Part shown: positions 165-33,682 of the stretch, in pieces
Layout of the letters: the number at the start of each line of letters is the position of its first letter
Position numbering within the stretch: the stretch's first letter is position 1
Source of the DNA: Candidatus Zhuqueibacterota bacterium
Lineage (GTDB): Bacteria; Zhuqueibacterota; Zhuqueibacteria; Thermofontimicrobiales; Thermofontimicrobiaceae
Direction: 5' to 3'
DNA: 64,000 bases
NCBI GenBank assembly: GCA_016783825.1
Contig: JADHVV010000002.1
Location: 3,259-67,258 of the forward strand
Translations under genes and position numbers: made by a program
The notes under the pieces: generated by a model
The model's database searches: none
Seen by the model: only the letters and a program-made list of their open reading frames with translations
Told to the model about the DNA's origin: nothing

Positions 165-3100
165 TTAAATCTTCTTAAATTTCCCAACCGGAATAATCCG
201 CTCGTATAAACTATCACCGCCATGGGTGTATCGCGGCGAATCCTTAAACGAATACCCTGTTTTTTCAACAAATCCATGATCACTGGAAAGATAGAAATTT
301 TCGTCTTTTTTTAATTGGGCGAGGATTGGGAACAGGAAAGATTTTAATCGTTCCATAAATTCAGCGAACACATCGGCGATGTTGCTTTTTTCCGCATGAA
401 TTTTTTCATCCAAAAAATTGATGATGTAAAAATGGGGTTCCTCGTTGTTGGTTAAAAAATGTTCCTTAAATTTCGATTTATTATATTCACGTTCCACACA
501 TTTCATGAATGGTATTTGTTCCTGCTCGAGAAATTGGTAGTATGTTTCGGTATCCGAGGGGATTAGCGACAGGCAAAAATTTTCTTCGACTAAAAAAAGT
601 CCGGCTTTCTCGCAAAGCTGGTCTATTAATAAATTATAAAAATCAGCACGCAGACCATCAATAATTATAAATTTTGCCGCTTCATTTTCCACGATCTTTT
701 TAACCTGGTATGAGATAAGATTGCGATCTTTTTCCCAGGTTGGTAACTTTACTAAAAAAGTATTCTCCAGTCTAATAAGGCGATCACGAATGGTTGTGTC
801 AAAAAAATGAGTAAAATCACCGGGCAAATACTGCTGCTGTTCATTGATACGAACCAGTTCCTTTGACAATAGAAAAAACCCGTTCTCTTCCACCGCAAAA
901 GGCAGAAATTGTGCATAAGATTCAGGGATTGCCAAAGCTGTTTTATATAACGCACTCAAGGTCAAAAAATTTTTCAGAAAAACTGATTCTTCGGATGAGT
1001 CCGTAAGCTTTTTGACCACTTCCATCTCGTCAAACGTGTTCATCTTTTTATAAACTGCAGCAATTGCCTGTTTCCGAATTTGAGGGAATCGATGCATGCT
1101 GCAAAATAATTGGATAATCAAATCGATTGGTAAATTTTCCAATTTTAAAAATTCAAACAGCAAAAGGATATTCTTCTGCGACAAGCAATCGAATAAATCC
1201 TTTTCCCTGGGTAATTGTTCGACGATGTTTTTTATCCCTTTTTCATCCAGCGAATCCTGTTTAAATCCGGGGATACTCACATTTACCTCTTTTAACAACA
1301 TGTACAAATATCCGGCGATAATTTTATCAATCGCCCTTTCGATAGTCTCGCCAGGAAATAATTTTTCGATTTCGCTTTTTACAAAAGTTGGCAATTCCAA
1401 AGATGGTTTTGATTGAACATTCTCAACAGGATTTTTAATTGAAATATAAACTTCACCCGAAGGCAGTGAGGCTTCATCCAGCCAGCCATAAAAAATCTGT
1501 TTTAGCTGGGCTGGCTGGAATTTTCGTCCATAGAGCATTTCGGTTAAATCATCTAAATTTTTATCCACAAAAATAATATCACCGGAAAGCGCTTCATTCA
1601 GTCCCGAAATTGTGTGCGGATTAATATTTTTTTCCAATTCAGTAATGGAAGGAAACGATGATAAATCCATGTTAAGAAAATATTCAAACTGATCGCTGCT
1701 TTTTACATCCCGCACCTGGTTAGCCGCTACTTTGTATTCGATGATCTTATTATGGTTTTCCTTTGATTTAATCGCGGTTAAATATTCTGTTATGCCCGAA
1801 TTGATCCGCTCCACCAGTTCATCCCTGGTATATTTTTTTTCCAAATTCCCGGTCTTTAATTGACAGGAACACACTGGTTTTGATTGCAGCTCGCGGGAAA
1901 GATCACGAAAACAGTTTACTGCCAGAATTGAATTGAAAATATTTTCAATTCGGATAAAGTCGTTTTTCACCGAGATCAATTCGATCTCCGAAAGATTTTT
2001 AAGGATTTTAAATTCGCTTGAATTTTTTAGGCTGTTAATTTCCTCATAATAATTTTTAGGATATAATTTTTCATGATATTCAGAATAAAGTTCCCGGTAA
2101 GACATTTTAAATTGTTCAAAATCAGAGAACAATGTTTCCAGTCCAAATCCTCCAAAACCGGATTCAAAAGATTGAAGTTTTTCAAGGAGTTGCTCAAAGG
2201 AGTCAGACAATCCCCTATTTTCTATTACTTGTGGAATTAATGGATGATTCGCATATTCATAAATAAAAACAATATGCTGTAAATTCGCGTTGTCGATGTC
2301 GTTAATTTTTTCAAAGGAAATCACTGCCCCTTGTAAGACAACTTCCGATTCAAAAAAATTCAGTAGCGATTCAATCCCCTTTCCTGAAGGCAGGGATCGT
2401 TTGATGTAGCTCATAACTTCTTTGAGATAGTTTAGGGACTCCAGGTAGTTTTCAAAAGTCCGGTTAGAAAAGGGCAATGTATTGCTGAACCGTTCCAGCA
2501 GTATGATTTTATTAGGTACAATATCTTCGTTTCTCTCTTTAAACTCCACCAGGTTTTCCCACACCTTTTCTTGTCCTTTTAAATGGAGTTCACTGTTTTT
2601 GATACTACCAACCAACGGCGTTAGTTTGAAATATTCTTTCAAAAACAATTTGGAAACCTGTTCCCCCGGGGTAAACAAATCCGCGTTCTCAATGACAGTT
2701 ACCGTAACCTGGTTCTGTTTTATCGCCCTGTTTTTATAATAAACCTGGATAAATCCGGCTGCAGATAACAGGTACAACACGAAAACAAATTGCGGCTTTG
2801 TGCAGCCAAAAACTGACTTGCGATATTTATCAAATAAATGGTTGTAACCCGGATTCTCATCCTCAATCGTTTTTAGCAAGTCACGAACAAAAACAGATTG
2901 TTCAGGATGCGGTTCAATAATTATTTCAAAGCCGACAATTTTTATCAAATGTAACTTTTCCACCAAATTTTTTATCAAAGATTTCATTGATTCCGATGAC
3001 ACAGCAAAATGGCGCCCGGTTAAATTTTCATTGATGTAATTGATGACCTCGTTAATTGAAGTTAGCGGCGGCTCCGAAATAATGGGTTTAATTTTTTTAT

Positions 3101-5366
3101 GTTCTTCGTATAATTGAGAAAGTATTCTGTCAGTCAATCGTTGTTTGAGTTGATTGAAATCAATGATGATCCGGGCAACCTCTCCAAAAAGGTCTTCATT
3201 TTCATACACCAGCAGAGATGGAGAAAAAAAGGATTCAATAAGAATGTTAAACGCCTCGTCCTTAAGATCACTTATGCGCTGGCAAATCGCAGACTGCATG
3301 TCGCCCAAAAAATCCAGATTCTCGTTTTGAATATTCTGATAAGTATATTGTTCCGCATAATATTGGCTTATTAATTTGAGATTTTTCTCGCTAATAATAG
3401 TTGGCTGCCAATAAACAAAGGACTGTTTGAATCGATCAGAAAGCGCAGCAACCTGCTGCCACAAGTTTTCTGTTTTTTCTGATCCAAACACGGGGTAACC
3501 AAGAACAATAACATATTCAACATCGCCTTGATTTATTTTTTGTTCCCACGATTGAAGCATGTCCGTTGTGATTCTTTCCGGCAAAGCAAGCGTGATTAAA
3601 AATTTTCGGGGCGTCTCCTGCCAGGGACAAAAATCTACTACCTGGTTATCGTAAAAATTTTGCAGCGGCAATCGGTTATTTGTACAGCGCTGGATCAAAT
3701 GGCTGATCGCCTTTTTTTCAATATTGACAATTCGACCGAAATTTTTATTGACTTCTTCTTGAAAGCGATCTAAAACAGATTTTTCAGGGGAAATAAGATA
3801 AATATCATTATAACGTCCATCAACATCTTCTTTTTTGATGTAAGTGAAGGAACTCATTAATTTATTCAGGATGTGCCGAATGAAATTAATATTCGCCTCC
3901 TGCTCAAGCTGGGAGATGCCCTTGCCTGTTAGCTCGGCAAGTTTACCAATGGTGAGTTTTTTTAATCCCGGCGCGATTTCAGTTAAAATCAAAATCTTCA
4001 CAAGGGCATACGCCACCTGTTTTTCTTCATGAATTTCTACGCTTTCCTGTTCCTCACTCTCCTGAAAAATGAGCGGAACTTCTTTAACAAAATTTTTATA
4101 AACCTGGTCAACAAAATCGTGCGTCGCCTGGTTTTCCTGAATCTTATCAAAGAAATTATCAAACACTTTATCCGGGGTAATTAAAACATTGGCATTTTCC
4201 TCGATGTAGGGAACATGAGTTTCAGGATCGACGGCGTGTAAACTATTATAAAAGAATTCCACCATGCCCCGCGCTTTTGAGAACAGGTTGGAAATACTTT
4301 CCAGGTAGTAAACCGTTGCCGGGTGCACAGGATAAATATTGTAGAATTCTTCAAAGTTTAATTTCCAGGTTGGAAAATAATCTTTAAACTCGGAATACAC
4401 ATTGTTTATTTCCTGGCGGCTGTTCTCTTTTTTGATGGAAAGCCGTTTTTCGAGCAGCTCTTTGATATGGGTGGTGGACAAATAAATGCGGTTATTGAAA
4501 CGATCCCTGATCTTATTCAACGACAGTTCCGAAGCGCTGGATATTTCTTCGATGTCTTCCTGCATGCTCAAAACCGTCCAACAGTTCAGTGGTAAATTCC
4601 ATTCCCCGAGAAACTGTAAAAACCGGACATCTTCGCTATTAACATCAAGCTCTGATCTTGACCGCAAAAATTCAGAAACTTCATCAATGAGCAGTAAAAC
4701 CCCGCCCGGGAAATGCTGTTGTATTGATTTTTGTATGATGATATAAAAATCTTCCCGTGAAAAGACAGGTGTAAAGGATAAATTTTTATTTATCAAAAAT
4801 TCCCGTAAACAAACAGCTTGTTCGTCTGCTGATTTATTTTTATATATTTCAAAAAATTCATCAACTAAATCTTCAGATACAAACGTTTTAAAATCTTCAA
4901 TAATTTTATGGCTGATGGATGATGGAAAACCAATTCCTTTATTCAAGAGTTTTTTTCGTATCGAATCAAAGACAGCGTTTTCAAGCGAAATATCCTGGGT
5001 ATAACTCGTTAATGAAACCGGCACAGCTAAAATCTCACCGGGGAAAAAATCTTTTTCAAAAGGAGAAATTTCTGCTGAGATGGAAGTCAAATTTTTAAAC
5101 AATTTGATGTTTTCTGAAATCGCTGCCAAATAAGCCAATAAATGACTTTTCCCCGAACCATAACTGCCTTTAACAATGAATCCGGCGTTTTGTTTTTGAG
5201 CGATTTTTTTAATAATAAGAGAAATACCAAACAGCACCTCTTCCGTCAGGATGAATGTGTCATAAATTTTATCCTGCAAACTTTTCTGATCATAATTATA
5301 TAATTCATTGATTTTAATGACTGTTTCAATTTCCGGTATTTGGATCAGGTCTTTGATTTTTTTCAT
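165..5366 (-). CDS. Giant 1733-aa fusion protein: N-terminal BrxC/PglY-like P-loop ATPase, long uncharacterised middle region, C-terminal PglZ (alkaline-phosphatase superfamily) domain
   Basis: Uninterrupted 5.2-kb ORF. Walker A is GSYGSGKSH (aa 67-75, nt 5142-5168) and Walker B is LLLIDE (aa 224-229, nt 4680-4697), in the GxxGSGKSH form I recall for BrxC/PglY-type ATPases. A YPVHP motif follows the ATPase core. The last ~170 aa (nt 168-668) carry four PglZ/alkaline-phosphatase signatures: IIIDGLRAD, LIPSDTET, SSDHGF, YTHGGDSLYERIIPV. Confidence 0.85.
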   Translation of the reverse strand: MKKIKDLIQIPEIETVIKINELYNYDQKSLQDKIYDTFILTEEVLFGISLIIKKIAQKQNAGFIVKGSYGSGKSHLLAYLAAISENIKLFKNLTSISAEISPFEKDFFPGEILAVPVSLTSYTQDISLENAVFDSIRKKLLNKGIGFPSSISHKIIEDFKTFVSEDLVDEFFEIYKNKSADEQAVCLREFLINKNLSFTPVFSREDFYIIIQKSIQQHFPGGVLLLIDEVSEFLRSRSELDVNSEDVRFLQFLGEWNLPLNCWTVLSMQEDIEEISSASELSLNKIRDRFNNRIYLSTTHIKELLEKRLSIKKENSRQEINNVYSEFKDYFPTWKLNFEEFYNIYPVHPATVYYLESISNLFSKARGMVEFFYNSLHAVDPETHVPYIEENANVLITPDKVFDNFFDKIQENQATHDFVDQVYKNFVKEVPLIFQESEEQESVEIHEEKQVAYALVKILILTEIAPGLKKLTIGKLAELTGKGISQLEQEANINFIRHILNKLMSSFTYIKKEDVDGRYNDIYLISPEKSVLDRFQEEVNKNFGRIVNIEKKAISHLIQRCTNNRLPLQNFYDNQVVDFCPWQETPRKFLITLALPERITTDMLQSWEQKINQGDVEYVIVLGYPVFGSEKTENLWQQVAALSDRFKQSFVYWQPTIISEKNLKLISQYYAEQYTYQNIQNENLDFLGDMQSAICQRISDLKDEAFNILIESFFSPSLLVYENEDLFGEVARIIIDFNQLKQRLTDRILSQLYEEHKKIKPIISEPPLTSINEVINYINENLTGRHFAVSSESMKSLIKNLVEKLHLIKIVGFEIIIEPHPEQSVFVRDLLKTIEDENPGYNHLFDKYRKSVFGCTKPQFVFVLYLLSAAGFIQVYYKNRAIKQNQVTVTVIENADLFTPGEQVSKLFLKEYFKLTPLVGSIKNSELHLKGQEKVWENLVEFKERNEDIVPNKIILLERFSNTLPFSNRTFENYLESLNYLKEVMSYIKRSLPSGKGIESLLNFFESEVVLQGAVISFEKINDIDNANLQHIVFIYEYANHPLIPQVIENRGLSDSFEQLLEKLQSFESGFGGFGLETLFSDFEQFKMSYRELYSEYHEKLYPKNYYEEINSLKNSSEFKILKNLSEIELISVKNDFIRIENIFNSILAVNCFRDLSRELQSKPVCSCQLKTGNLEKKYTRDELVERINSGITEYLTAIKSKENHNKIIEYKVAANQVRDVKSSDQFEYFLNMDLSSFPSITELEKNINPHTISGLNEALSGDIIFVDKNLDDLTEMLYGRKFQPAQLKQIFYGWLDEASLPSGEVYISIKNPVENVQSKPSLELPTFVKSEIEKLFPGETIERAIDKIIAGYLYMLLKEVNVSIPGFKQDSLDEKGIKNIVEQLPREKDLFDCLSQKNILLLFEFLKLENLPIDLIIQLFCSMHRFPQIRKQAIAAVYKKMNTFDEMEVVKKLTDSSEESVFLKNFLTLSALYKTALAIPESYAQFLPFAVEENGFFLLSKELVRINEQQQYLPGDFTHFFDTTIRDRLIRLENTFLVKLPTWEKDRNLISYQVKKIVENEAAKFIIIDGLRADFYNLLIDQLCEKAGLFLVEENFCLSLIPSDTETYYQFLEQEQIPFMKCVEREYNKSKFKEHFLTNNEEPHFYIINFLDEKIHAEKSNIADVFAEFMERLKSFLFPILAQLKKDENFYLSSDHGFVEKTGYSFKDSPRYTHGGDSLYERIIPVGKFKKI

Positions 5367-5494
5367 TGTTTTATATTCGTGTTGGGATTAAATTATTTAG
5401 CTTGATTTTCCACATGTTTTATTTTTGTAAATATATTAAAAATAAGAATATTCTGCAATAGTAATTTTGAATCTTTTCATAGAAGCAATGTAAA

Positions 5495-5573
5495 AGATGC
5501 GACGCACTTACAACCGTAATAAACCTAATTTTAAAATTAAGAGTAATTGACAGGACTAAAGTGCGTCGCATCT
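5495..5573. repeat. Perfect 15-bp inverted repeat (agatgcgacgcactt / aagtgcgtcgcatct) with a 49-nt loop, in the 443-bp spacer upstream of the giant gene
   Basis: Arms at 5495-5509 and 5559-5573 are exact reverse complements. The right arm contains the actaaagtgc motif that recurs at 12.2 kb and, as a shorter core, at 42.4 kb. Confidence 0.5.
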
Positions 5574-5809
5574 CTCTTATTATAAATACAATCGAACTTT
5601 GCGAACCTGCTGTTTAACCTAATTCCTTAAATTTCAGCCTTTTGTATTTTCGAACTTCCTGTTGGGTTCGGAAAATATCGCCAAATATCATTATTAAAAT
5701 TTTCCGAATTGAGATCAGTTTATCGCATTTAATGAAAATAGCTTGTTGTTATTTTTTTCCGCGTGGTTTTTTGATCCGTGTGGGAAAGTTTGTTTTTGTT
5801 AAATTCGTA

Positions 5810-6772
5810 TTAGCTTTTCGACAATCTCTTAATCGCCCCCCAAAGTTGTTTCGCATCAGGATTTCTTTCTAACAAGTCCAAAAAATGCTCAACGACTTTT
5901 TGCTCCTGGTTGGTTTCCCGGGCGGATTTTATGACCATTGTAATGAAACTGGGAATAAGAAAATTTTTCAGTGGCATTTCAAGAAAAATGGTTAATGCCA
6001 AATCATATTTTTTCCATTTGTAATAGACATACCCCAATCGGCTTTTGTGAAATAAATTGTTTTCTTGTTTTAGAATTTCTTTGTAATATTTTTCTGCCTT
6101 GTCAAATTTATTTTCTTTCAAAAACTTTTCAGCCAATTCTTTCAACACGAACGGTTCATTTTTGGATGTTGAATATTTTATGGACTTTTCCCACTGCTGC
6201 GCTGAAATGTCTTTTAATTCGGTTTGAAATTGTTTCTTCTTGGAAATGTATTGTTGGGGCTGGTTACTATGATTTATTGCGTAGTCGATTAAATCGAGAG
6301 CTTTATCATTTTGTTTTAAAGCTTTTTTGATCAAAAATCCCAGGTAATTCAATTTAGGATTATCATATAATTTGATTATTGTCTGGTCGAAAAAATAATT
6401 TGCTTTGTCATACTGTTTTAACCGATAATACTCATTGGCAAGCCGCCAACCAACATGGGGATCTTTTTTGGTAAAATAGAGGTTGTTAAAAATCTTGAGG
6501 GCTTCTTTATTCTTTTTCATTGCCACTAACAAATCACCTTTACGACTCAAGAAAAAGAAATTTTGCGGATCCTTTTGAAGAATTTTATCTAAAACTTTTT
6601 GAGCTTTATCATAAGCGCCTTTTTTTAAATAAACATCAAACAGGGCGCCACAAACGTACTCGTCATCCGGATGTTGTGTTATTAACTCTTGCAGTAATTT
6701 TTCTGCTTCGTCATATTTTTTTAACCAACTAAGCTCTCGAATTTTCCGAAGATCTAAAAATGATTTTTTCAT
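5810..6772 (-). CDS. TPR-repeat protein (320 aa)
   Basis: At least seven repeats of the ~34-aa TPR-like pattern, e.g. KKYDEAEKLLQELI, GAYDKAQKVLDKILQKDPQN, KQYDKANYFFDQTI, NKFDKAEKYYKEILKQ, KKYDLALTIFLEM. Same strand as the giant ATPase-PglZ gene and directly upstream of it. Confidence 0.8.
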   Translation of the reverse strand: MKKSFLDLRKIRELSWLKKYDEAEKLLQELITQHPDDEYVCGALFDVYLKKGAYDKAQKVLDKILQKDPQNFFFLSRKGDLLVAMKKNKEALKIFNNLYFTKKDPHVGWRLANEYYRLKQYDKANYFFDQTIIKLYDNPKLNYLGFLIKKALKQNDKALDLIDYAINHSNQPQQYISKKKQFQTELKDISAQQWEKSIKYSTSKNEPFVLKELAEKFLKENKFDKAEKYYKEILKQENNLFHKSRLGYVYYKWKKYDLALTIFLEMPLKNFLIPSFITMVIKSARETNQEQKVVEHFLDLLERNPDAKQLWGAIKRLSKS

Positions 6773-7069: not shown

Positions 7070-7363
7070 TTATCTTCTATTTAGACCATAATCAGGATGT
7101 CTGCGCTGGTGCTTAACTACTGTAACTCGTAGCGTATCGTTATCCAAAACTCTGAAATAGATGACATAAGGGAAGCGTTTCATTAACGATCTCCGAACAT
7201 TGGATTCGACTGCCATCCATCGAGTTGGCATTGATGCGATTCTCAAAATCTGCCGCTCAAATTCATTGAGAAATTCCACTCCTAATCCAGGAGAACACTC
7301 GTTATAATATTTAGTGATCTCACGTAATTCACGCTCAATTGCCGGATGATATTCAATCCTCAT
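7070..7363 (-). CDS. RelE/ParE-family type II toxin (97 aa)
   Basis: Family-typical size and motifs: YHPAIERELREI, RRSLMKRFPYVIYFRV, VVKHQRRHPDY. Overlaps the upstream antitoxin gene by 4 nt. Confidence 0.8.
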   Translation of the reverse strand: MRIEYHPAIERELREITKYYNECSPGLGVEFLNEFERQILRIASMPTRWMAVESNVRRSLMKRFPYVIYFRVLDNDTLRVTVVKHQRRHPDYGLNRR

Positions 7364-7584
7364 TCTCGCAGCCTGTCCATTAATTCTTTGTGGGATAACG
7401 GTGTCACTTCACCCCTTTCAATTTCCCCATCCCGTTGTTTTGCAAGGATTATTGCATCCTCATCAGACATTTCAGAAGAAAGAATATATGGATCATCAAG
7501 GCTTTCCCATATTGTCTCGGCAAGAATTGCTCTATCGCGCGAACTAAGTCGCAAAGCTTCACTGGCTATCTGATCAATACTCAT
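7360..7584 (-). CDS. Addiction-module antitoxin component (74 aa), partner of the ParE/RelE toxin
   Basis: LSSRDRAILAETIWESLDD ... AKQRDGEIERGEVTPLSHKELMDRL matches the short 'putative addiction module component' family pattern. Translationally coupled (4-nt overlap) to the toxin. Confidence 0.7.
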   Translation of the reverse strand: MSIDQIASEALRLSSRDRAILAETIWESLDDPYILSSEMSDEDAIILAKQRDGEIERGEVTPLSHKELMDRLRE

Positions 7585-7725
7585 AAATCATCCTACATGA
7601 ATAGTTATTATTAATGGTCTAATAAACAAATTCACCTGCGCTGGTGGTAAAATTGATTTATACTTTTTCCAGTTATTCATCTCTTTTAAATGGTTTGAAA
7701 GAGGAATCACTTTATTAATTTTCAT

Positions 7726-8301: not shown

Positions 8302-11300
8302 TTAACCCGCTATCAATTCCAACAATTCCTTGCTGGAAATTTTACCGCTCAGATCACTGCCCTGTAATAAACTATCCGCCAAATCCCGTTTTTGGTTATG
8401 CATTTCCACAATTTTTTCTTCAATCGTATCCTTTGCCACCAAACGGTAAATCGTAACAGGACGTTGTTGACCAATTCGATGCGCGCGATCCGAAGCCTGG
8501 TCTTCCACTGCCGGATTCCACCAGGGGTCCATGTGAATCACATAATCTGCAGCTGTCAGGTTCAAGCCCAATCCTCCGGCTTTTAAGCTGATAAGGAAAA
8601 CATCGCCTTTACCAGCCTGGAAAGAATCTACAGCAATTTTACGTTGTTTGACCGGGGTGCTGCCATCTAAATATTGATAATGAATATTTTGTTCGTCAAG
8701 GTAAGCGCGTATTAAACTAATCGGTATGGCAAAGTTTTTGTTGAAACTTTCCAGGGAACTCAGCAGCCCCGGGTTGATAAATCGAAATAAGTTCCACAAT
8801 TCTCCCAAGTGATTTTCAATCGGGGTTCCGGTAGTGAGCAATTTGAATTTTGCCCCTAATTTCATCGCGGCTTGTGAACGCTTGGTGAAAAAATTCTTTA
8901 TTGCCTGGGCTTCATCCAATACGACCATTTGCCAGGGGACAGGTGCCAGCATCTCACTTACCTGACTTTGTTGCAATAAACCATAACTGCATAATATGAC
9001 ATCAAATTTACCCGCTTCATCCAGAATTTTTTCCCGATTGTTGCCGCCGAACTGAACCACATTCAGCGTCGGGGCGAAACGGTTGGCTTCCGCTACCCAA
9101 TTAAAACAAACAGAAGTTGGCGCAACTACCAAACTGGGGCCATCCGGGGCATGTTTTAACAGCATTGCCAGTGCTTGTATGGTTTTGCCTAATCCCATAT
9201 CGTCGGCTAAACAAGCTCCCACACCCCAATGAGACAGGCTGGCTAACCATGAAAAACCCTGTACTTGATAATCCCGCAATTCGGCTTGAAAAGTGGAGGG
9301 CAACTGTGGTGTAAAGTCCTGCGCGCTTTGCAGATTATTAATATGAGATTTCCAGGCGATATCGGTTTTTAATTGACCGACACCATTTGTCAGACCTTCC
9401 AATGCCAAAGCTGCCAGCGGATGGAACCGTATGCCCACCCCATGTTTTTCAGAATAACGGTTTAGCTCTTGCAGGCGTTTGCGAAATTCATTGGTCAAAG
9501 CGATAAACTGACCGTCTTTCAATTCTATGAAACGGCTTTGACTTTTTTCCGTGAGCGCCAATAACTGCTGCATGTCAACAACTAACTGTTCATCAATTTG
9601 TAAATTGCCTGTAACGGCAAACCAATCTTGTTGTTGTTTAATGCTCAAATGAAACTGGTCTAACGACGCATGACCGACCAGTTTGAATTTTTCACCTTCG
9701 GGCCATTCCAGCACAATTTGTTGGCGCAGTTCATCCAATTCCAATAAAACTTCCAGACAATCTCCGATATCGTCCAACAACCATTCTCCATGATTTTCTT
9801 CGTAATGCTGCAAAGTCGGACAGTTGTCGATCAATTCTGACATTTTTTGTTTTTCCTGGGCCAGATCACGCATGGTTTTTAAATGTTTGCCATTGATCTC
9901 AGCAATTACATTCCTGCCGCCGCTGCCCGGTGAATAATAAGCGCCGCCCAAACCAAAAGGACGCACAAATACCGAAATTTTTAAACCATAGCCAAACGGT
10001 ATCAAATGCACATAATTTTGGGTGTCTGACTCGACTTCAGTAAATTGGTCGCTTTTTCCTTCAACATCCGAATGGATTGTGATATCAGAAGCAAATTTTT
10101 CAACAATTTGGTTGACTTTATTTTTTGCCGAAGCCGGAACGCTGATCCCTTTTCCCAGTATCTTGGCAATGCGCAGATACTCTTCATCGATGCTTACAAT
10201 TTTTATTCGCGTCTTTGTTTCTTTGACTGCCTGGTAATTTCCCTCATAATTTGCTGGTTTCGGGAAAAGCTCCAAAAAAATCTCGCCATCCTTTTGTTTC
10301 GTAATCCGCAATTCCGGCTTACCTTTAACCAGTTCAACCCGGCTTACCCCATCCGGCATAAAAATGAACGGATGTCCGATCACTGCAAACAAATATTTGT
10401 CATCGAAGAGATATTCATAATTTGTGTACCAACCATCTTTATATTCATTGCAATATATATGGCTGCAAATTTGTTTATCTTGCCGGCTTAAATAGCGGAT
10501 GGTTTTCAATTCTTCGTGCAAACGTTTCATTGCAATTGGGCGTCCTTTTGTCCAATTGCCATCCGGTTTTCGTTTTTGCTCCCGGGGACTGACATGGCAA
10601 TAACCACTTTCTTCGTAATCAAGAAACCAGACCAAACGAAAATCTTTGTTTACCGTTTCTGATTTTTTTTTGCTTTTATCTTTTATCGCTAACAAAGCAT
10701 TTAATGTATGCTCCCAAATGTTGGTTTGTTTTACGATGTCGATTAAATACTTTGATTGAGGTTTATAAGTTGTCTTTTTTCCATTGCCGGACAATTTATT
10801 GATCAAACCAGCCAATTCATGCTTGAACCATGGATAAATATTTATTTCTGCCGATTTGTATATTTCCTTGATCTCATCTAAATTTTCTTTTGCTTTATCT
10901 TTATCAATCCAATAGTAGGTAAAAATTTTGAAAAACGATTCAGTTAAATTTGCTTTTTCCCAATAATAGGAACTGATATCAGTATGCCTAAATACATCGT
11001 TAGCTGCCTTAGAATTGCCGGTCAGAAATTCCAATGAATAATTTAATAAGCTGTAAATATCAGAATACAAATTATATCCTGTGCCGATGTCAGAAAGAAA
11101 GGTTCGCGCCTCATTTAGTCGCTGGTCGCTATTATCCTTCATTAACGCTAAAATAAAAAAACCACCCATAAAATTGTCGAAATAAACAATGCGTTGATTT
11201 GAATTCTTTTTCAGAATTTCATAAGCAGCCTTATAATATTGAATCGCCGCTTCATTTTCTCCCTGTAAAAAAGCCAGCCAGCCCTGCAAGCATAAACTGT

Positions 11301-12090
11301 TCTCCGTAATATCGGTTTGATGTTTTTTTAGCCAATTTTCTATTTTCTGACTTTCTCCGCTTAACAGCCATTTTTCCAAAACGCTCGATAGTAAACCGCC
11401 CGAACATCTATCCGAATCTGATAATACCAATTGCTCGACATAATCGTAGTGTTCAGCTTTGTTTTTCCAATAGCGCAAGTCATTTACCAATGACTGTCTG
11501 AACAGGTCAGTATGAATATCCGCGGGTAATAGTTTAACCCAGTTTGGATCAAACGGATTACAACTGATTTTACCCAAAATATCGGATAAAGAATTGCCGT
11601 AGTCTATTTTGCTTTTATATTTGTGATAGAGGCTTTTTATTTGATCCATTTTATTTTGATAAAATAAAATACGAATAGCGGCGACTATATGATGATGTTC
11701 AAGATACGAATACATGTCCAGTGTATCTTCGGTCAAATTGAGGACAGTTTGAATCGTTTGCAGATAATGGATAGACTTTTTCTCCGTGATTATCTGACGC
11801 ATGATGGTTTCCACAATTCGACGATCAACGAGGAGATAACTGCGACTTTTGCCTTCCAATAAATGCTGTGCCAATAAAGAATCCAGCGCCGGACGCAGCA
11901 GCTTGAAACCCTCATTCTTTGTTACCGAATCGAATCCTTGACCATTGGCTGCTCTAATATCTGTCTTTATCAAACATTCTTTTAACTGGGTTTGATTTAA
12001 TGGAAAATATGCAATGGAGAGAATTTGCATAATGCTTTTTTCCAATGCGGGCTGTTTTTCATAACTTGAGATTGACTTATTGACGATCAT
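8302..12090 (-). CDS. SNF2-family helicase (1262 aa) with a long helical-repeat N-terminal region; helicase motif-IV segment apparently missing
   Basis: Motifs present: LRDYQVQGFSWL, DDMGLGKTIQ (motif I), VVLDEAQAIKN (II), LLTGTPIENHLGELWNLF (III), FLISLKAGGLGLNLTAADYVIHMDPWWNPAVEDQASDRAHRIGQ (V/VI). NFAIPI is followed directly by SLIRAYLDEQNIHYQYLDGST (junction near nt 8718/8719). Confidence 0.85.
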   Translation of the reverse strand: MIVNKSISSYEKQPALEKSIMQILSIAYFPLNQTQLKECLIKTDIRAANGQGFDSVTKNEGFKLLRPALDSLLAQHLLEGKSRSYLLVDRRIVETIMRQIITEKKSIHYLQTIQTVLNLTEDTLDMYSYLEHHHIVAAIRILFYQNKMDQIKSLYHKYKSKIDYGNSLSDILGKISCNPFDPNWVKLLPADIHTDLFRQSLVNDLRYWKNKAEHYDYVEQLVLSDSDRCSGGLLSSVLEKWLLSGESQKIENWLKKHQTDITENSLCLQGWLAFLQGENEAAIQYYKAAYEILKKNSNQRIVYFDNFMGGFFILALMKDNSDQRLNEARTFLSDIGTGYNLYSDIYSLLNYSLEFLTGNSKAANDVFRHTDISSYYWEKANLTESFFKIFTYYWIDKDKAKENLDEIKEIYKSAEINIYPWFKHELAGLINKLSGNGKKTTYKPQSKYLIDIVKQTNIWEHTLNALLAIKDKSKKKSETVNKDFRLVWFLDYEESGYCHVSPREQKRKPDGNWTKGRPIAMKRLHEELKTIRYLSRQDKQICSHIYCNEYKDGWYTNYEYLFDDKYLFAVIGHPFIFMPDGVSRVELVKGKPELRITKQKDGEIFLELFPKPANYEGNYQAVKETKTRIKIVSIDEEYLRIAKILGKGISVPASAKNKVNQIVEKFASDITIHSDVEGKSDQFTEVESDTQNYVHLIPFGYGLKISVFVRPFGLGGAYYSPGSGGRNVIAEINGKHLKTMRDLAQEKQKMSELIDNCPTLQHYEENHGEWLLDDIGDCLEVLLELDELRQQIVLEWPEGEKFKLVGHASLDQFHLSIKQQQDWFAVTGNLQIDEQLVVDMQQLLALTEKSQSRFIELKDGQFIALTNEFRKRLQELNRYSEKHGVGIRFHPLAALALEGLTNGVGQLKTDIAWKSHINNLQSAQDFTPQLPSTFQAELRDYQVQGFSWLASLSHWGVGACLADDMGLGKTIQALAMLLKHAPDGPSLVVAPTSVCFNWVAEANRFAPTLNVVQFGGNNREKILDEAGKFDVILCSYGLLQQSQVSEMLAPVPWQMVVLDEAQAIKNFFTKRSQAAMKLGAKFKLLTTGTPIENHLGELWNLFRFINPGLLSSLESFNKNFAIPISLIRAYLDEQNIHYQYLDGSTPVKQRKIAVDSFQAGKGDVFLISLKAGGLGLNLTAADYVIHMDPWWNPAVEDQASDRAHRIGQQRPVTIYRLVAKDTIEEKIVEMHNQKRDLADSLLQGSDLSGKISSKELLELIAG

Positions 12091-14330: not shown

Positions 14331-14693
14331 TCATATTCTCTTATATTTCTTCGGTAATAATTCACTAATAGCGACAATTTCGTGCTTGTTGTTTTCTTTG
14401 ATTATCACCTTTGCCTCCGGGGAATAATCTGAGATCAACTCTCTACACATGCCGCACGGTGAAACGACTTCACCCTGCGAATTAACAGCAACAATAGTAT
14501 CAATTTCCGTATCACCTTCAGCCGCAGCCATGCCGATGGCGATCGCTTCTGCACAAATCGCTATGTGAACCGCAGAGAATTCATTGCCGGATTTCGTTCG
14601 CAAGGCTGCACCTACCTCATGAAATCCTTCCTTATAGCGTTTCCTGATTATTGAACCGGCTTTCGTTATGAGCTTTTCATCTGACTCTACCAA
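14331..14693 (-). CDS. Cytidine/blasticidin-S deaminase-like zinc deaminase (120 aa)
   Basis: CAE zinc/catalytic motif (AICAEAIAIG) and SPCGMCRELISDY (PCxxC). Size and C-terminal ELLPKKY resemble small tetrameric CDA/BSD enzymes. Confidence 0.75.
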   Translation of the reverse strand: MVESDEKLITKAGSIIRKRYKEGFHEVGAALRTKSGNEFSAVHIAICAEAIAIGMAAAEGDTEIDTIVAVNSQGEVVSPCGMCRELISDYSPEAKVIIKENNKHEIVAISELLPKKYKRI

Positions 14694-14986
14694 TTGTTTT
14701 TATCCTTTTCATTTAAAAGCTGTTTACAATGCCGGATTGTCAATATTGAAATACGTTCCGATTCAATTCGGTAAATGATTCGGTAATTACCTTCAAAAAT
14801 TTCCAGGATATCAACTCTTTTAATTTCCGGGACCTCACGCCCAATTCGCGGAAACCTTTTAAGTTTTCTTACAGATTTCTGAATTGTTTCTGTCCATTTT
14901 AAAGCAGCAAGAGGTTTATCAAGAGCAATATAATCAGCATATTCTTCAAGTTTTTCAATAGCTAATTCAGTCCAGGTTAATTTCAT
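14687..14986 (-). CDS. ParE/RelE-family type II toxin (99 aa)
   Basis: KRFPRIGREVPEI ... NYRIIYRIESERISILTIRH is the typical ParE pattern. 4-nt overlap with the upstream Phd/YefM gene. Confidence 0.8.
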   Translation of the reverse strand: MKLTWTELAIEKLEEYADYIALDKPLAALKWTETIQKSVRKLKRFPRIGREVPEIKRVDILEIFEGNYRIIYRIESERISILTIRHCKQLLNEKDKNNW

Positions 14987-15264
14987 TTTTTATACTTTGC
15001 AATTAATCGTTTTTTTACCTGGTTTTCAGTAAAATACTTACCTTCAGCTATTTGTCGTTCGGCTGCGTGTACTTCCTGTAACAGCTCAAGCTTATCAATT
15101 ATAGCCTGATATTCGGCAACGTCAACTAATACAGCGGAACTTTTACCGTGTTGGGTTAACACTAATGGTCTTTTTGTTTCTTTTATTTGCTTAACAATAT
15201 TAGCAGCATTTGCCCTAAACTCCGACAAAGGTTTAATATCATTTTCAAGATCAATTTGTCTCAT
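14983..15264 (-). CDS. Phd/YefM-family antitoxin (93 aa)
   Basis: SEFRANAANIVKQIKETKRPLVLTQHGKSSAVLVDVAEYQAI is the canonical Phd/YefM N-terminal fold sequence. A GTAC-N8-GTAC element at 15293-15308 lies in the presumed promoter. Confidence 0.85.
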   Translation of the reverse strand: MRQIDLENDIKPLSEFRANAANIVKQIKETKRPLVLTQHGKSSAVLVDVAEYQAIIDKLELLQEVHAAERQIAEGKYFTENQVKKRLIAKYKK

Positions 15265-27512: not shown

Positions 27513-30500
27513 TTGTCGCGAATAACTTTTTGTTCTGCACCCTCCTGGGCAACACTGTTGGAAAAAAGCGATGAGTGGTTAAATGAAAAAAACAAACCAA
27601 CTTTGTTTCTAATCCCACAAAACTGGCAATCTCAAAATCTTCAACAATCTTTTCCGGGCAGCCAAACGCTTACGACAACTCAATTGCTACAACGGTACAT
27701 CAACAAGAAATTTGATGAGAAGCAGTTACTCTCAAAGCAATCGGTTGAATATTTGCTCCTGTCTGTTATTTTTAAAACATCACCCGGAGATGAACAGACA
27801 GTGGCGCGGTATTTAAATATTGAAACTTATTACCAGGGATATGCCCGGGCGCTGACCGAGTTCATTCTTGATTTCCGGGAAAACGGTCAGGAAAATTTAT
27901 TAACCGCTTTGAATGCTTTTAAACGGGATGTACTCACTGCAAAAGAACATGATTTAGTCGATATTCATGATGAACTGGAAAATCTGCTTAAAGAAAATGA
28001 TTTATTTGATTATCGCAGGGCAGTTTTCGACTTTTTGGAAGATAAAGAAACAGGCAAGCCCGAAGTTTTTTTGCCGGAATTATCAGATGCGAAACTGGTC
28101 ATTGCCGGTTTTAACCATATCAATTTCCTTGAATCAAAACTGATTGGTTGGCTGATGTACCGGTTTAGGATGAGCATTTTTACTTTTTGTGAAAATTCAA
28201 ATGCTGCGGAAGCCACTTTTAAATCCCAGAATTCGATTCAGGATTTTATTAATAAAGCGAAACAGGTATTTAAGGAAAACTTTGAAGATGTTAAAATCCT
28301 TTCGCCGGCAAAAACACCTTTACAACCATTGGCAGAACTACTTTTCGTTGATGATAAAAAGGAGCTCCTGCCAGGTTCAACCACCAATGTTTTTATTAAA
28401 TCATCAAACGACCGCTACAACGAAGTTACACTTATTGCACGACAGATTCGACAGTTGCTGTCCGAAGGTGTGCCACACCAACATATCCGTGTTATATTTC
28501 CAAATTATGAAACTTATGTTTCGCTTCTGCGGGAGGTGTTTCCGCGCTATGAAATTCCTTTTAAATTATCTTCGGGAACTCCACTACCATTTTTTCCATT
28601 GGCGCAGCTTCTTTCCAATATGATCAACCAGGCGGTGGTTGCCAGTCCGTTTGCTTTGCGTGAGCACATTTTTTCTTCTCCTTATATAACATTTTCACTC
28701 GAAGTTACTGCTGATGTTTTGATCAAATTTGTAACAAACATTTCTGTTGAGCTATCGGCTATTCAAGAAACTATTGACAAATTCCTGTCAAATCCAACAT
28801 CATTTACTTTGAATTATTCATGGCTGCAAGCGGTACAAAAGAAGGCTGCGCAAACCATTCGTTCATCAGAAAAATTACACCCATTACAACTGGTCGTGCG
28901 CTATTTTAACAAACTTTATGAAAATAATCGAGAGAAAAATTTGCAGCAGATTTTTAAAGCTGTTATAAATTATTTTTTGTTAGCTCGTGCTGAAAGAGCG
29001 CTTTATGTCTGGCGCAATGAAATGGAAGTCCCTGCCTTTACTGCTGCGTTTGAAAGATTAGTGCAGCGTTTTCAAATTGAGAAAAATATGAATGAGTCTG
29101 GCAGGCAAAATAATGATACTTTGAAAACTGTAATCGAACAGGACAAGCTTGTACTGGAAACAATTCGAAAAATAATCAAACACCTTGAGCAGCAGTTATC
29201 AACCCTGGCAGTGAAATCAGAACAAAAATTTCCATTAACAGACCTGGCTCGATCTTTTTCCAGTTTAATGTCTGACCCTGAATTTTATTTGTCGGATGGA
29301 GGGACAGAAGGTGTGGCGATTTTCACTCAGGATGAGGCATCCCTTAAATTTATGCCGGTAACTTTTATCGGTGGGCTTATCGATGGCGAATTTCCAGCCA
29401 AAGAGCCGTTCAATTTTTTGCAGCCTAAAAAAGAAGGCGAGGTGCTCTCTGACAGCCTGTCTTTTGTGGACAGGGATCGGCAAATATTTTATCAACTTAT
29501 TGCAGCGACGACAGAGAAACTTTATATTTCCAACCCTGTTTCTGATAATGGCAAAAAGCTATTGGTTTCCCCATTTGTTACTGAAATTCAAAAATGTTTT
29601 TCTGAAGGAGAAAATCTCACAGCCACGATAAACGAAAAACTTTACACATCCCGTGAAAAACTCGCTTACCTGGGGCAGCATGTTGATCGCTCCTTTGAGA
29701 GTACGATGCCCCTGCTGAAAGAATTTCAGGAAAATTCCCCGGAATTTTTCAATCAGATAATTTCAATATTCCAGTGCGATGGCTTGCGCGGCAGTGTAAA
29801 AAGTTTCTCTTTATTCGATGGTCTGTTTTATTCCCCGGTTGCTATTGCAGCAATCCGGGAGCAAATAGATGATTCATTTGTTTTCAACGTAGAAAAGTTA
29901 GAGCGGTTTGCCGGCTGCCCATTACGATTTTTATTTGATGACCTTTTGCAGTTAAAACCGGATTTTCTTTACGACTATCATCCTGATCGAACTGAACGCG
30001 GTATTTTAATAAAGAAAATTTTAACCGATTACACCAAGGTCGCTTCTACGGAAGGAAGAGTGCCGGGTAACGCTGCCGAAATTTTACAGCAGTCCGCTGC
30101 TTCTGCATTAGAAGAAATTCTGAATGAGAAAGAAGATTTGTTTAACATTCGTTTCAAACGCGGGCTGACAGTCGGTCTCGATCAAGACGAGAAAACAAAG
30201 CGTAAGCGTCCCGGTTTATTGGCTGCGTTTTTAAAAAATGAAAAGACAGCTAAAGATTTAATTGAACCGTATTTTGCAGATATTGTTTTTGAAAATGAAA
30301 ACGGTAATCGTTTCCTGCTGGATAATATTCCCATAAACATAAAAATTGAACGGGTTGATAAAACCAAAGATGGCAAGTTCCTTCTTATTTATAATTACAG
30401 TATTGCTGATTTCGGTAACGTTGAGGGAATTGGCAAAGGGCTCCGTTTTAATTTGCCTCTACAAATTATTGCTTTGCGTGATTATTTAAGACGGCTTAAA

Positions 30501-30896
30501 AAAGAGGATAAAGTAGCCGGCGCTGGAATTTATTTGGTGAGAAATTATCGAAATATTAAGCACGGTGGTTATTTTGCTATCAAAGATTTACAGGCAACTC
30601 GCGAGGAAAAAGTAACTGAAGAAACTCCGATTATTTCCGGTCAGCGAAAATTCGGATTTTTACCAGCGGCAAATTTTGAAGAAGAATTAGACAATGTAAA
30701 AAAACGGGTAGTCCATATAAAAAATTTGATTCAAAGAGGTCGTTTCCATTTGCCGATTTGTACTGTAAAAGATCAAACATGCGCTAACTGTTACTTCACT
30801 CGCATTTGTCGAAAAGAACAATTGCGGTTGGATAATCTTTATCTTCAGTTGGATGAGAAAGATGTTTATAAACCAAAGAGGAGGTTGGTTGATTGA
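27513..30896 (+). CDS. AddB-like PD-(D/E)XK-superfamily subunit with Fe-S cluster cysteines (1127 aa)
   Basis: C-terminal domain has LERFAGCPLRFLFDDLL plus CTVKDQTCANCYFTRIC (Cys ... Cx2Cx5C, the AddB iron-staple arrangement) and ERVD ... LLIYNYS ... PLQIIALRDYL. The N-terminus lacks a Walker A. TTG start preceded by GGAGA. Confidence 0.75.
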   Translation: MSRITFCSAPSWATLLEKSDEWLNEKNKPTLFLIPQNWQSQNLQQSFPGSQTLTTTQLLQRYINKKFDEKQLLSKQSVEYLLLSVIFKTSPGDEQTVARYLNIETYYQGYARALTEFILDFRENGQENLLTALNAFKRDVLTAKEHDLVDIHDELENLLKENDLFDYRRAVFDFLEDKETGKPEVFLPELSDAKLVIAGFNHINFLESKLIGWLMYRFRMSIFTFCENSNAAEATFKSQNSIQDFINKAKQVFKENFEDVKILSPAKTPLQPLAELLFVDDKKELLPGSTTNVFIKSSNDRYNEVTLIARQIRQLLSEGVPHQHIRVIFPNYETYVSLLREVFPRYEIPFKLSSGTPLPFFPLAQLLSNMINQAVVASPFALREHIFSSPYITFSLEVTADVLIKFVTNISVELSAIQETIDKFLSNPTSFTLNYSWLQAVQKKAAQTIRSSEKLHPLQLVVRYFNKLYENNREKNLQQIFKAVINYFLLARAERALYVWRNEMEVPAFTAAFERLVQRFQIEKNMNESGRQNNDTLKTVIEQDKLVLETIRKIIKHLEQQLSTLAVKSEQKFPLTDLARSFSSLMSDPEFYLSDGGTEGVAIFTQDEASLKFMPVTFIGGLIDGEFPAKEPFNFLQPKKEGEVLSDSLSFVDRDRQIFYQLIAATTEKLYISNPVSDNGKKLLVSPFVTEIQKCFSEGENLTATINEKLYTSREKLAYLGQHVDRSFESTMPLLKEFQENSPEFFNQIISIFQCDGLRGSVKSFSLFDGLFYSPVAIAAIREQIDDSFVFNVEKLERFAGCPLRFLFDDLLQLKPDFLYDYHPDRTERGILIKKILTDYTKVASTEGRVPGNAAEILQQSAASALEEILNEKEDLFNIRFKRGLTVGLDQDEKTKRKRPGLLAAFLKNEKTAKDLIEPYFADIVFENENGNRFLLDNIPINIKIERVDKTKDGKFLLIYNYSIADFGNVEGIGKGLRFNLPLQIIALRDYLRRLKKEDKVAGAGIYLVRNYRNIKHGGYFAIKDLQATREEKVTEETPIISGQRKFGFLPAANFEEELDNVKKRVVHIKNLIQRGRFHLPICTVKDQTCANCYFTRICRKEQLRLDNLYLQLDEKDVYKPKRRLVD

Positions 30897-31894: not shown

Positions 31895-33682
31895 ATGTAT
31901 CAAAATCAAGTCCCAATAAGTTCATTTTATCGAAGTGTTTTAAAAAAGAATGAGAATAGCATGACAAATGAAGAACTAAAAAATATTATAAAATCCGGCG
32001 AAAACATTTCCGTAGAATTTAAAGAAGCAAAACGCCAGCTGCCTGAAAACTTGTTTGAAACCATCTGTGCTTTTCTTAATATGGAAGGCGGGAAAATATT
32101 ATTGGGAGTTCGTGATGATGGGGCAATTTTAGGTGTTGATCCTGAAAGCATCGCCAGGCTAAAAAATGACATTGCCAATCTCTCAAATAATCATCAGAAA
32201 TTGGATCCTGTTTTTATGCTTTCTGCTCATGAAATAAAATATAAAGGGAAAACCGTATTATTAATAGATGTGCCGGTTAGTTCACTGGTACATAAGTGTA
32301 ATGGTGTTGTCTATGCCCGAAATGAAGAAGGTGATTATAGAATAACGCGGCTTGAAGCCATAGCAGGACTTGTCAATCGCAAACAAAGTTATTTTACAGA
32401 ACAGAGAGTTTATCCTTACATCACGATTGATGATTTGAATACAAAATTATTAAACCGGGCAAAAAGGCTTATTCAGGGAAATTCACCGGGACATCCCTGG
32501 ATTGAATTGCCAACCGACGAACTGCTGCACCGGGCAGGATTTTACCGTAAAGCATCGGATGGAGCAGAAGGATTTACCCTGGCAGCAATTCTTTTCTTTG
32601 GCAAAGATGAAACCATCCAGTCAGTTGCTCCAGCCTACAAATTTGACGCCCTGTTGAGAAAGCACAATCTTGATCGTTATGACGACCGCTTGATTGTACG
32701 AACAAATTTATTAGATGCTTACGATTTACTGATGGAATTTATTGCCAAACATTTGAACGATCCATTTTACCTGGAAGGTGATCTTCGTATTAGCTTACGG
32801 GACAAAATATTTCGGGAGTTGGTAGCCAATATCATTGCTCATCGAGAATACTTGGACGGTCGTCCGGCAACATTGATTATCTACAAAGACAAAGTGGTTT
32901 TTACAAATCCAAATATACCACACGGTAGAGGCGTCATCGATCCGAAACATTTCACACCTTTTTCAAAGAATCCAACAATTTGTAAATTTATGCTGCAAAC
33001 CGGTCGAATCGAAGAAGTGGGGTCAGGTATCAGGAATGTCAGTAAATATCTGCCGCTGTATTCAAAACAGGGTAAGTTCGAATTTATTGAAAGTGATATG
33101 TTTGAGACAAATATTTTTTTGGGTGAACTTACCCTACAAACTGCACAGAAAAGTTCCCCTGTAAGTTCCCAGATAAGTTCACAGAAAAGTACCCACGAAA
33201 CTACCCAGAAAACTACCCAGAAAATGATTGAACTTATTAAGGAAAATCCACACATAACGCGTAAAGAAATGGCTGTGAAAATAGGAATCACAGAAGATGG
33301 TATTAAATATAATTTGCGCAAAATGCAAAATAATAAAATTATAAAACGAATCGGTCCCGATAAAGGCGGATTTTGGAAAATAATCAATCAAAAAACTTTT
33401 AAATCTCATCAACAATCCATTGGGGAAAGTTCCCATATAAGTTCACAGAGAATTACCCAGAAAACTACCCACGAAACTACCCAGAAAACTACCCAAAAAA
33501 TGATTGAACTTATTAAGAAAAATCCATACATCACGCGTAAAGAAATGGCTGTGAAAGTAGGAATCACAGAAGATGGTGTTAAATATAATTTGCTCAAAAT
33601 GCAAAATAATAAAATTATAAAACGAATCGGTCCCGACAAAGGAGGATATTGGAAGGTAAATAAATCTAAAATGCAGGAATAA
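31895..33682 (+). CDS. AlbA_2 (Schlafen-like) + HATPase_c_4 ('RecG-like' putative ATP-binding regulator) protein with two tandem C-terminal wHTH modules
   Basis: ISVEFKEAKRQLPENLFETICAFLNMEGGKILLGVRDDGAILGV is the AlbA_2 motif. RELVANIIAHREY...VVFTNPN is HATPase_c_4-like. A 92-aa C-terminal module is duplicated. The likely true start is MTNEELKN at nt 31961. Confidence 0.8.
   Translation: MYQNQVPISSFYRSVLKKNENSMTNEELKNIIKSGENISVEFKEAKRQLPENLFETICAFLNMEGGKILLGVRDDGAILGVDPESIARLKNDIANLSNNHQKLDPVFMLSAHEIKYKGKTVLLIDVPVSSLVHKCNGVVYARNEEGDYRITRLEAIAGLVNRKQSYFTEQRVYPYITIDDLNTKLLNRAKRLIQGNSPGHPWIELPTDELLHRAGFYRKASDGAEGFTLAAILFFGKDETIQSVAPAYKFDALLRKHNLDRYDDRLIVRTNLLDAYDLLMEFIAKHLNDPFYLEGDLRISLRDKIFRELVANIIAHREYLDGRPATLIIYKDKVVFTNPNIPHGRGVIDPKHFTPFSKNPTICKFMLQTGRIEEVGSGIRNVSKYLPLYSKQGKFEFIESDMFETNIFLGELTLQTAQKSSPVSSQISSQKSTHETTQKTTQKMIELIKENPHITRKEMAVKIGITEDGIKYNLRKMQNNKIIKRIGPDKGGFWKIINQKTFKSHQQSIGESSHISSQRITQKTTHETTQKTTQKMIELIKKNPYITRKEMAVKVGITEDGVKYNLLKMQNNKIIKRIGPDKGGYWKVNKSKMQE
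33164..33665 (+). repeat. Tandem in-frame duplication (264/276-bp unit) encoding the wHTH module, preceded by 12-nt micro-repeats
   Basis: atgattgaacttattaag starts at 33224 and again at 33500 (offset 276). Unit 2 has one extra 12-nt actacccagaaa-type repeat (TTQK/THET). The truncated paralog has accatgcaagaa x2.5 at 31604-31640 (TMQETMQETMQ). Confidence 0.85.

Follow-up and report, generated by a model that had tools for sequence, protein, structure and literature searches.

A BrxC/PglY-PglZ fusion with a linked tetratricopeptide-repeat gene: a modification-free variant of BREX-related machinery

The ATPase BrxC and PglZ are the two universal proteins of bacteriophage exclusion (BREX), a form of phage defence. 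Both were found in one polypeptide in a 64,000-nucleotide stretch from a Candidatus Zhuqueibacterota bacterium (contig JADHVV010000002.1, positions 3,259 to 67,258; hereafter the window). The fusion gene (165..5366, reverse strand, stop codon 165–167) encodes 1733 residues, and the single protein comprises a BrxC/PglY AAA+ ATPase, a DNA-binding/helical body, a helical linker and a minimal PglZ core. A tetratricopeptide-repeat (TPR) gene lies upstream in conserved linkage. The pair is a new, modification-free variant of BREX-related machinery. With about even confidence, we read it as a two-gene, BREX-derived module that would act as an ATP-driven nucleic-acid phosphodiesterase, likely an accessory system against phages or mobile elements.

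The 1733-codon frame opens with ATG and runs without interruption, as judged from the open reading frame (ORF) listing and translation. Residue-for-residue identical protein is encoded on 15 metagenomic contigs, and a partial protein of 100% identity is labelled candidate division KSB1 in the database. A preliminary description made from the letters of this DNA had picked out the Walker A, Walker B, DGLR, PSDT, SDHG and THGG motifs, all of which were located where it placed them. Its proposal that BrxC/PglY and PglZ share one polypeptide was borne out as a real fusion, with both ends backed by profile searches and the PglZ end also by structure. All coordinates below are those of the window, and all parts of the fusion lie on the reverse strand.

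The N-terminal end is an ORC/Cdc6-type AAA+ ATPase domain of BrxC/PglY (4107..5366, aa 1–420). It matched Pfam DUF6079 (PF19557, renamed BrxC-PglY_N in newer releases) at E 1e-37, above the gathering score, and 13 PADLOC BrxC/SspC models, the best being BrxC at 1.8e-29. A family hidden Markov model (HMM) from 30 full-length homologs (profile A1) matched Acinetobacter BrxC chains of known structure (9zdx, 9zll and 9zn5; E 5e-16 to 5e-18) along residues 32–323. The BrxC/PglY assignment of the N-terminus thus survived Pfam, PADLOC and PDB BrxC searches. By motif reading, the domain carries a GxxGSGKSH-type Walker A (GSYGSGKSH, aa 67–75, nt 5142–5168, with K73) and an hhhhDE-type Walker B (LLLIDE, aa 224–229, nt 4680–4697, with D228/E229). 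Its arginine finger, R289 (nt 4500–4502), aligns in the PDB profile alignment with the published finger R330 of BrxC-Aci (PMC13326643). G67, G70, G72, K73, S74, H75, D228, E229 and R289 are invariant in the family. The NCBIfam equivalog model NF033441 (BREX_BrxC) gave 63 bits against a cut-off of 400 (E 1.5e-17). Since this is far under the equivalog cut-off, the ATPase is a distant relative and no ortholog of type 1 BrxC.

The C-terminal end is a minimal PglZ catalytic core of alkaline-phosphatase fold (168..746, aa 1541–1733, ~190 aa). Searches with the single sequence were weak: Pfam PF08665 (PglZ) reached 17.8 bits against a gathering threshold of 25, PADLOC PglZ 8.5e-5 and NCBIfam PglZ_5 4e-4. 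A search of PDB sequences with the whole family profile returned BrxC only, PglZ and PorX lying below the sensitivity of HMMER. Many fusion homologs carry a precomputed PF08665 match. An AlphaFold2 (AF2) model of aa 1400–1733 was of high quality (pLDDT 94.6, pTM 0.89). Foldseek placed PorX structures first among its PDB matches (E ~1e-9, probability 1.00), the highest TM-score going to the Acinetobacter BREX PglZ chain 9zn5_B (E 1.3e-7, TMq 0.60, probability 1.00); further matches were the alkaline-phosphatase-superfamily proteins EptA, MCR-1 and ENPP. Alignment by hhalign of 21 fused C-termini with three canonical PglZ proteins gave 97% probability (E 1.1e-10, 177 columns) and paired the motifs D/T/D-H/DH/H. 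The family profile also matched separately encoded proteins of 800–832 aa a few kb downstream of canonical BrxC in loci L048, L054, L057 and L073, which Pfam confirms as PglZ (1e-49 to 1e-55; 1.7e-12 for the contig-truncated L054 protein). Because structure match, profile-profile comparison and family-profile match to true PglZ agree, the PglZ assignment stands despite the sub-threshold Pfam score.

The active site comprises D1570 (DGLR), the nucleophile T1606 (PSDT; nt 549–551), D1653/H1657 (DEKIH), D1696/H1697 (SDHG) and H1715 (THGG), so that a two-metal site with a threonine nucleophile accompanies the alkaline-phosphatase fold. DEKIH, a fifth metal-site motif, had been overlooked. None of the seven metal and nucleophile residues varies in the alignments, which comprise 21, 30 and 67 homologs. 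Canonical BREX PglZ proteins (~700–850 aa) carry flanking domains that the fusion lacks. Profile region 1357–1741 aligns to only residues ~255–664 of a canonical 801-aa PglZ and the fusion protein terminates 16 aa past the HGG motif, which upholds the earlier view of a minimal PglZ without N- and C-terminal extensions.

Between the two ends, ~1100 residues had been considered unrecognizable. Some 900 of them align collinearly with unfused DUF6079 BrxC/PglY proteins and have a cysteine motif in common with them. In this region (1437..4106, aa 421–1310), winged-helix-like and alpha/beta modules precede a long helical stretch, in line at the sequence level with the BrxC/PglY body (winged helix-turn-helix, alpha+beta domain, winged helix-turn-helix, long helical/coiled-coil region). 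The family HMM was collinear with unfused DUF6079 proteins of 1200–1335 aa across profile positions 200–1300. Among individual proteins it matched those of L021 (E 3e-241, positions 2–1300), L044 (4e-80, positions 200–1200), and L047 and L049 (~1e-10, positions 680–1246). A Cys3-His cluster (H1098, C1152, C1166 and C1168, motif PVCxCGF; aa 1098–1168, window ~1863–2075) is invariant in the helical body and common to the fusion family and the unfused proteins; it may form a zinc-binding knuckle in the coiled-coil region. Judged by this collinearity, the ~900-aa middle is the body of an ordinary DUF6079 BrxC/PglY.

A search with aa 1101–1733 retrieved a sister clade of unfused proteins (1313–1352 aa) that stop at ~aa 1310 of the query, and the fusion boundary was therefore placed there. 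Beyond it, the AF2 model and the family profile alignment delimit an all-helical, poorly conserved linker (747..1436, aa 1311–1540) with low column conservation across its length. The linker matches the helical segment ahead of the catalytic core in canonical PglZ and PorX, and the AF2 model of aa 1400–1733 is helical until ~aa 1560. The catalytic residues of both ATPase and phosphodiesterase are intact and under purifying selection, because every one named above is invariant in 30 homologs of only 22–77% identity.

The architecture recurs widely. A search of 1.84 billion representative proteins gave ~100 full-length fused clusters at 50% identity, with protein lengths of about 1400–1870 aa. 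A PglZ-like domain was C-terminal-most in 114 of the best 120 of 519 homologs, the other six being truncated or members of the unfused sister clade. Fused members occur in at least 12 phyla, nearly all in uncultured environmental, metagenome-assembled genomes. They include KSB1, Spirochaetota, Bacillota/Halanaerobiales, Thermodesulfobacteriota, other Deltaproteobacteria, Acidobacteriota and Fibrobacterota, as well as Calditrichota, Nitrospirota, Actinomycetes, Gammaproteobacteria, Vulcanimicrobiota and others. Database names are confined to 'DUF6079 family protein' or 'hypothetical protein'. The chromosomal position of the fused gene differs in every genome compared.

Some members deviate in detail. 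A subclade of short proteins (1403–1441 aa; L030, L036, L038, L046 and L055) has its TPR gene divergently oriented, and in the same proteins the first PglZ motif reads LDCWG, VDCLG or LDAFA in place of DGxR, the Asp and the Thr nucleophile being retained. The 1758-aa fused homolog P0032 carries a precomputed Pfam PF14890 (intein splicing) match besides BrxC-PglY_N and PglZ. The unfused sister clade is exemplified by L021:9980-13987, L022:1025-5032, P0092, P0108 and P0157, among others. The genes in L021 and L022 have no PglZ, PglX or TPR gene nearby; two small ORFs (153 and 236 aa) lie ahead of them, and their flanks are of housekeeping type. The idea that the closest unfused relatives belong to canonical BREX operons was rejected, since L021 and L022 do not lie in one; these proteins look like 'orphan' BrxC-like ATPases outside BREX loci.

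The constant companion of the fusion is the TPR gene, which in the window (5810..6772, reverse strand) encodes a 320-aa protein with Pfam TPR repeats. An HMM built from TPR homologs detected it adjacent to the fusion in 31 of 33 distinct fused loci with enough upstream DNA, and next to canonical BrxC in 0 of 52 canonical BrxC loci. All annotated homolog loci have it directly upstream of the fusion gene. The TPR homologs at fused loci are collinear with one another and measure 295–402 aa, mostly ~320–370 aa. TPR and fusion genes commonly overlap by 3–34 nt, suggesting translational coupling. The preliminary description's 'self-contained' gene thus has a conserved, often overlapping partner.

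In two loci, both deltaproteobacterial, a complete RecQ helicase (DEAD, Helicase_C, RecQ_Zn_bind, RQC, HRDC) sits between the TPR and fusion genes (L009:7560-9929 and L012:7116-9494), and the gaps of 27–72 nt in L009 suggest a three-gene operon TPR-RecQ-fusion. In the window, TPR and fusion genes are separated by a 443-nt spacer (5367..5809, reverse strand) that contains a perfect 15-nt inverted repeat, AGATGCGACGCACTT, with a 49-nt loop (5495–5509/5559–5573). The repeat is unique in the window, with 0.04 matches expected by chance, and the spacer holding it matched no Rfam family. A difference in spacer length between contigs L001 and L002 was traced to a run of N and rejected as an assembly artefact.

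The genes that accompany BrxC and PglZ in BREX were not found. The earlier reading that no methyltransferase lies upstream was extended: none turned up within 10 kb on either side, and a scan of large ORFs across the remainder of the window showed none. PglX, BrxA/B/L and phosphoadenosine phosphosulfate (PAPS) reductase were likewise not found nearby, in a survey that took in homolog loci and the DNA left of nt 1, which was recovered from identical contigs. This left DNA showed neither pglX nor other BREX genes, so that a canonical operon just beyond the window edge, which had been allowed for, was not borne out. Seven annotated homolog loci contained no BREX modification enzyme (PglX/BrxX or the BrxP PAPS reductase); one homolog locus, L007, has a small-molecule-type S-adenosylmethionine methyltransferase. 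Among 110 flanking ORFs of 21 further loci there was no recurrent methyltransferase and no recurrent partner besides TPR, no Pfam family occurring in more than three loci. BrxA and BrxB gave no PADLOC or Pfam match among the neighbours or in the TPR protein, in searches that were sequence-based for two fast-evolving families.

How the module relates to known systems was assessed against published work. Like BREX types 1–6, it has an ORC/Cdc6-type AAA+ ATPase with a DUF6079 body and a PglZ core with identical metal and nucleophile residues, and both brxC/pglY and pglZ are present, as one gene. In type 1 BREX, BrxC and PglZ join BrxB in an ATP-dependent core complex (PMC13326643), which the fusion mirrors covalently. 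In canonical BREX, however, BrxC/PglY and PglZ are separate proteins, whereas here they are one polypeptide, and the partner found with it is a TPR protein, with no match to the PglX methyltransferase, BrxP, BrxA, BrxB or BrxL. The fusion also lacks the N-terminal BrxB-binding domain, inactive Snf2 domain, helix-turn-helix units and C-terminal beta-sandwich of canonical PglZ (PMC12839542), together with its large insert between the DHGF and RYxHGG motifs. Unlike canonical BREX, the module is not usually in defence islands. It falls outside every defined BREX type because no modification enzyme or accessory proteins were found with it and the canonical PglZ flanking domains are lacking.

The most comprehensive account of BREX diversity (Rakesh & Krishnan, NAR 2026; PMC12839542) equates BrxC with DUF6079 and describes three DUF499-centred BR types as well as a system centred on HerA/FtsK that includes DUF6079 and a reduced PglZ. 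Type-3 BR systems resemble the module in having a minimal PglZ core without BREX extensions, the presumed nuclease effector, beside a BrxC-like AAA+ ATPase. Their components are separate genes, though: a DUF499 ATPase, an N6-methyltransferase, a Snf2 helicase, an inactive STAND (iSTAND) protein and a stand-alone PglZ. The module has instead a DUF6079-type ATPase fused to PglZ and a TPR partner, with no methyltransferase or iSTAND found, which sets it apart from type 3. The HerA/FtsK-centred system likewise unites a DUF6079 ATPase and a reduced PglZ outside BREX, but as two of seven separate components (HerA/FtsK, STAND, DUF4007, GNAT, TGT, PglZ and DUF6079); the inactive Snf2 domain is retained in its PglZ, and the HerA/FtsK, STAND, DUF4007, GNAT and TGT partners are not present here. 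PorX, a response regulator of type IX secretion, is the best structural match to linker and PglZ core and shares the Thr nucleophile and two-metal site. It differs in its N-terminal receiver domain and signalling role, and has no AAA+ ATPase, DUF6079 body or TPR partner. The text of PMC12839542 mentions no BrxC-PglZ fusion, TPR partner or RecQ. No prior description of the fusion architecture, or of PglZ with a tetratricopeptide protein, was found in the searchable literature, in keeping with the earlier statement that the arrangement had not been described.

A mechanism can be proposed from published BREX biochemistry. BrxC dimerizes or oligomerizes with ATP and binds DNA (PMC13326643), PglZ is a nuclease that depends on metal and both nicks and cuts DNA (PMC12205998), and the PglZ domain of PorX is an oligonucleotide phosphodiesterase (cited in PMC12839542). 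By analogy, ATP binding would cause the AAA+ domains to dimerize or oligomerize on DNA, and the assembled ATPase would position or license the tethered PglZ for DNA nicking or cleavage. The PglZ core might instead hydrolyse oligonucleotides, as its counterpart in PorX does. The covalent link would replace the BrxB bridge of canonical BREX, and the TPR protein would take a regulatory or trigger-sensor role. Without a methyltransferase, target choice could not proceed by epigenetic self-marking and would have to go via the TPR partner or a DNA feature.

Most likely, the module defends against mobile elements or phages. We favour this role since the relatives are defensive, the family occurs rarely and patchily, at varying chromosomal positions, and the locus here is an accessory stretch rich in toxin-antitoxin pairs. 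A stronger version is put forward tentatively, in which TPR and BrxC-PglZ form a self-sufficient, modification-independent 'minimal BREX': the TPR protein would sense an invader trigger, the AAA+ domains would assemble on DNA and the attached PglZ would restrict the invader. If true, the pair would be the BREX core in its simplest natural form, and the protein a 'Rosetta-stone' fusion, indicating that the ancestral executive step of BREX is PglZ activity under BrxC control rather than methylation.

Several observations weigh against the main reading. Searches of PLSDB plasmids, GenBank phages and IMG/VR contigs did not recover the fused gene; PLSDB and IMG/VR gave only N-terminal BrxC-like matches, and the phage collection none. 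Cross-phylum identity is 22–29%, with no sign of recent horizontal spread. Flanking ORFs are mostly housekeeping (for example MreB, TIM and isocitrate dehydrogenase), and few of the 110 match PADLOC models. RecQ, SNF2 and AddAB-like genes stand beside the module in a few lineages, which fits BREX-like helicase accessories and DNA repair equally well. Physical interaction of the TPR protein with the fusion is inferred only from gene linkage. An AF2 model of aa 401–1420 (1020 aa, multi-domain) had good local confidence (pLDDT 87.4) and low global confidence (pTM 0.49), and gave no significant Foldseek match, and none to BrxC, so that the body is assigned to BrxC by collinearity and not by fold. 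The preliminary description had spoken of a 'BREX-derived defence' system. Its BREX relation held, while the argument for the defence role is one of homology only, set against mostly housekeeping flanks. It had also counted conserved housekeeping neighbourhoods as evidence to the contrary; the flanks proved housekeeping in type, but not conserved in position.

Three of these facts keep a DNA-maintenance role alive: the flanks are of housekeeping type, no fused copy came from a mobile element, and helicase or recombinase genes turn up sporadically beside the module. The ATPase might load on chromosomal DNA structures and PglZ process ends, nicks or adducts, together with RecQ, SNF2 or AddAB helicases and with the TPR protein as adaptor. 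RecQ between the TPR and fusion genes in two deltaproteobacterial loci, an SNF2 helicase near the module both in the window and independently in L030, AddAB-like genes flanking some loci and a deep divergence that roughly tracks taxonomy would all suit such a factor. We nonetheless find it doubtful. A rare and patchy family (the ~100 clusters at 50% identity; ~35 of the GTDB species loci fetched) with no fixed chromosomal position is unusual for repair, helicase linkage is sporadic (~4–5 of ~30 loci), and characterized relatives of the two domains acting together are all in BREX-type defence.

Improbable in our view is a nucleotide-signal phosphodiesterase, whose PglZ would hydrolyse cyclic or linear oligonucleotides as PorX does, under regulation by the ATPase and the TPR protein, with DNA not the substrate. 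PorX structures do lead the matches of the C-terminal model (E 1e-9), and the core is minimal like the stand-alone PglZ of Type-3 BR systems (PMC12839542). Yet the match to BREX PglZ (9zn5_B) is nearly as good, the domain is joined to a full BrxC body with DNA-binding relatives (PMC13326643), and flanking-ORF scans showed no linked cyclase, receiver domain or other signalling gene. That the gene is a decaying remnant of canonical BREX, or two genes joined by an assembly or annotation artefact, might be suggested by the lack of a methyltransferase or other BREX genes nearby and by its location among toxin-antitoxin cassettes in the source genome, but is hardly credible and effectively refuted, given an identical uninterrupted ORF on 15 independent contigs, the same architecture, with all catalytic residues invariant, in more than 100 diverged homologs and a conserved TPR partner gene.

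To our knowledge, how BREX stops phage is still unresolved, and a six-protein BREX system is hard to dissect. The module offers a two-protein system for asking how the ATPase gates the PglZ active site. The fusion also lends independent genomic support to BrxC and PglZ working as one physical unit, deployed here outside modification-based self/non-self discrimination. Should the module prove not to be immune in function, it would represent the first DNA-maintenance role for a BrxC-PglZ module, which would be equally informative.

The surroundings of the module look like an accessory stretch between carAB and the aspartate-semialdehyde dehydrogenase and aspartate kinase genes. Upstream of the TPR gene lie an antitoxin/ParE pair, an SNF2 helicase, a sodium:solute symporter, a deaminase, a PhdYeFM/ParE pair and carAB. 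On the other side, the non-coding edge of at least 164 bp noted previously turned out to be just a spacer of ~148–174 nt, after which a DUF433/DUF5615 toxin-antitoxin pair begins around nt 17 and extends beyond the window. It is followed by an AAA-ATPase_like/PDDEXK_9 gene and a UPF0150 (HicB-like) gene, with aspartate-semialdehyde dehydrogenase and aspartate kinase beyond. Three toxin-antitoxin pairs surround the module in this genome: Unstab_antitox/ParE (~7070–7600), PhdYeFM/ParE (14687–15264) and DUF433/DUF5615 (left of nt 17; L001:15350-15849).

The SNF2 helicase (8302..12090, reverse strand, 1262 aa, by Pfam) was considered as a third component and rejected, as it is not kept at the closest KSB1 homolog locus, L006, and recurs at one other locus only, L030. 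There, in an acidobacterial genome, an SNF2 helicase stands beside the TPR gene, independently of the window locus. The window protein matches only positions 1–198 of the 290 in the Pfam SNF2-rel_dom profile (aa 941–1125), and Helicase_C starts four residues later, at profile position 32; an in-frame internal deletion appears to have taken away the motif III–IV region. The same protein has a weak match to the NCBIfam 'sll1366 family intein-prone helicase'.

The rest of the window is ordinary chromosome, including an AddAB-like pair, a dcw cluster and a V-type ATPase. The AddB-like PD-(D/E)XK protein (27513–30896) and the UvrD/AddA-like helicase (33784–36831) are both encoded on the forward strand. 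Between them, on the same strand, lies a gene for a 595-aa Schlafen AlbA_2 and winged-helix protein (31895–33682); Schlafen-type proteins are often defence-associated.

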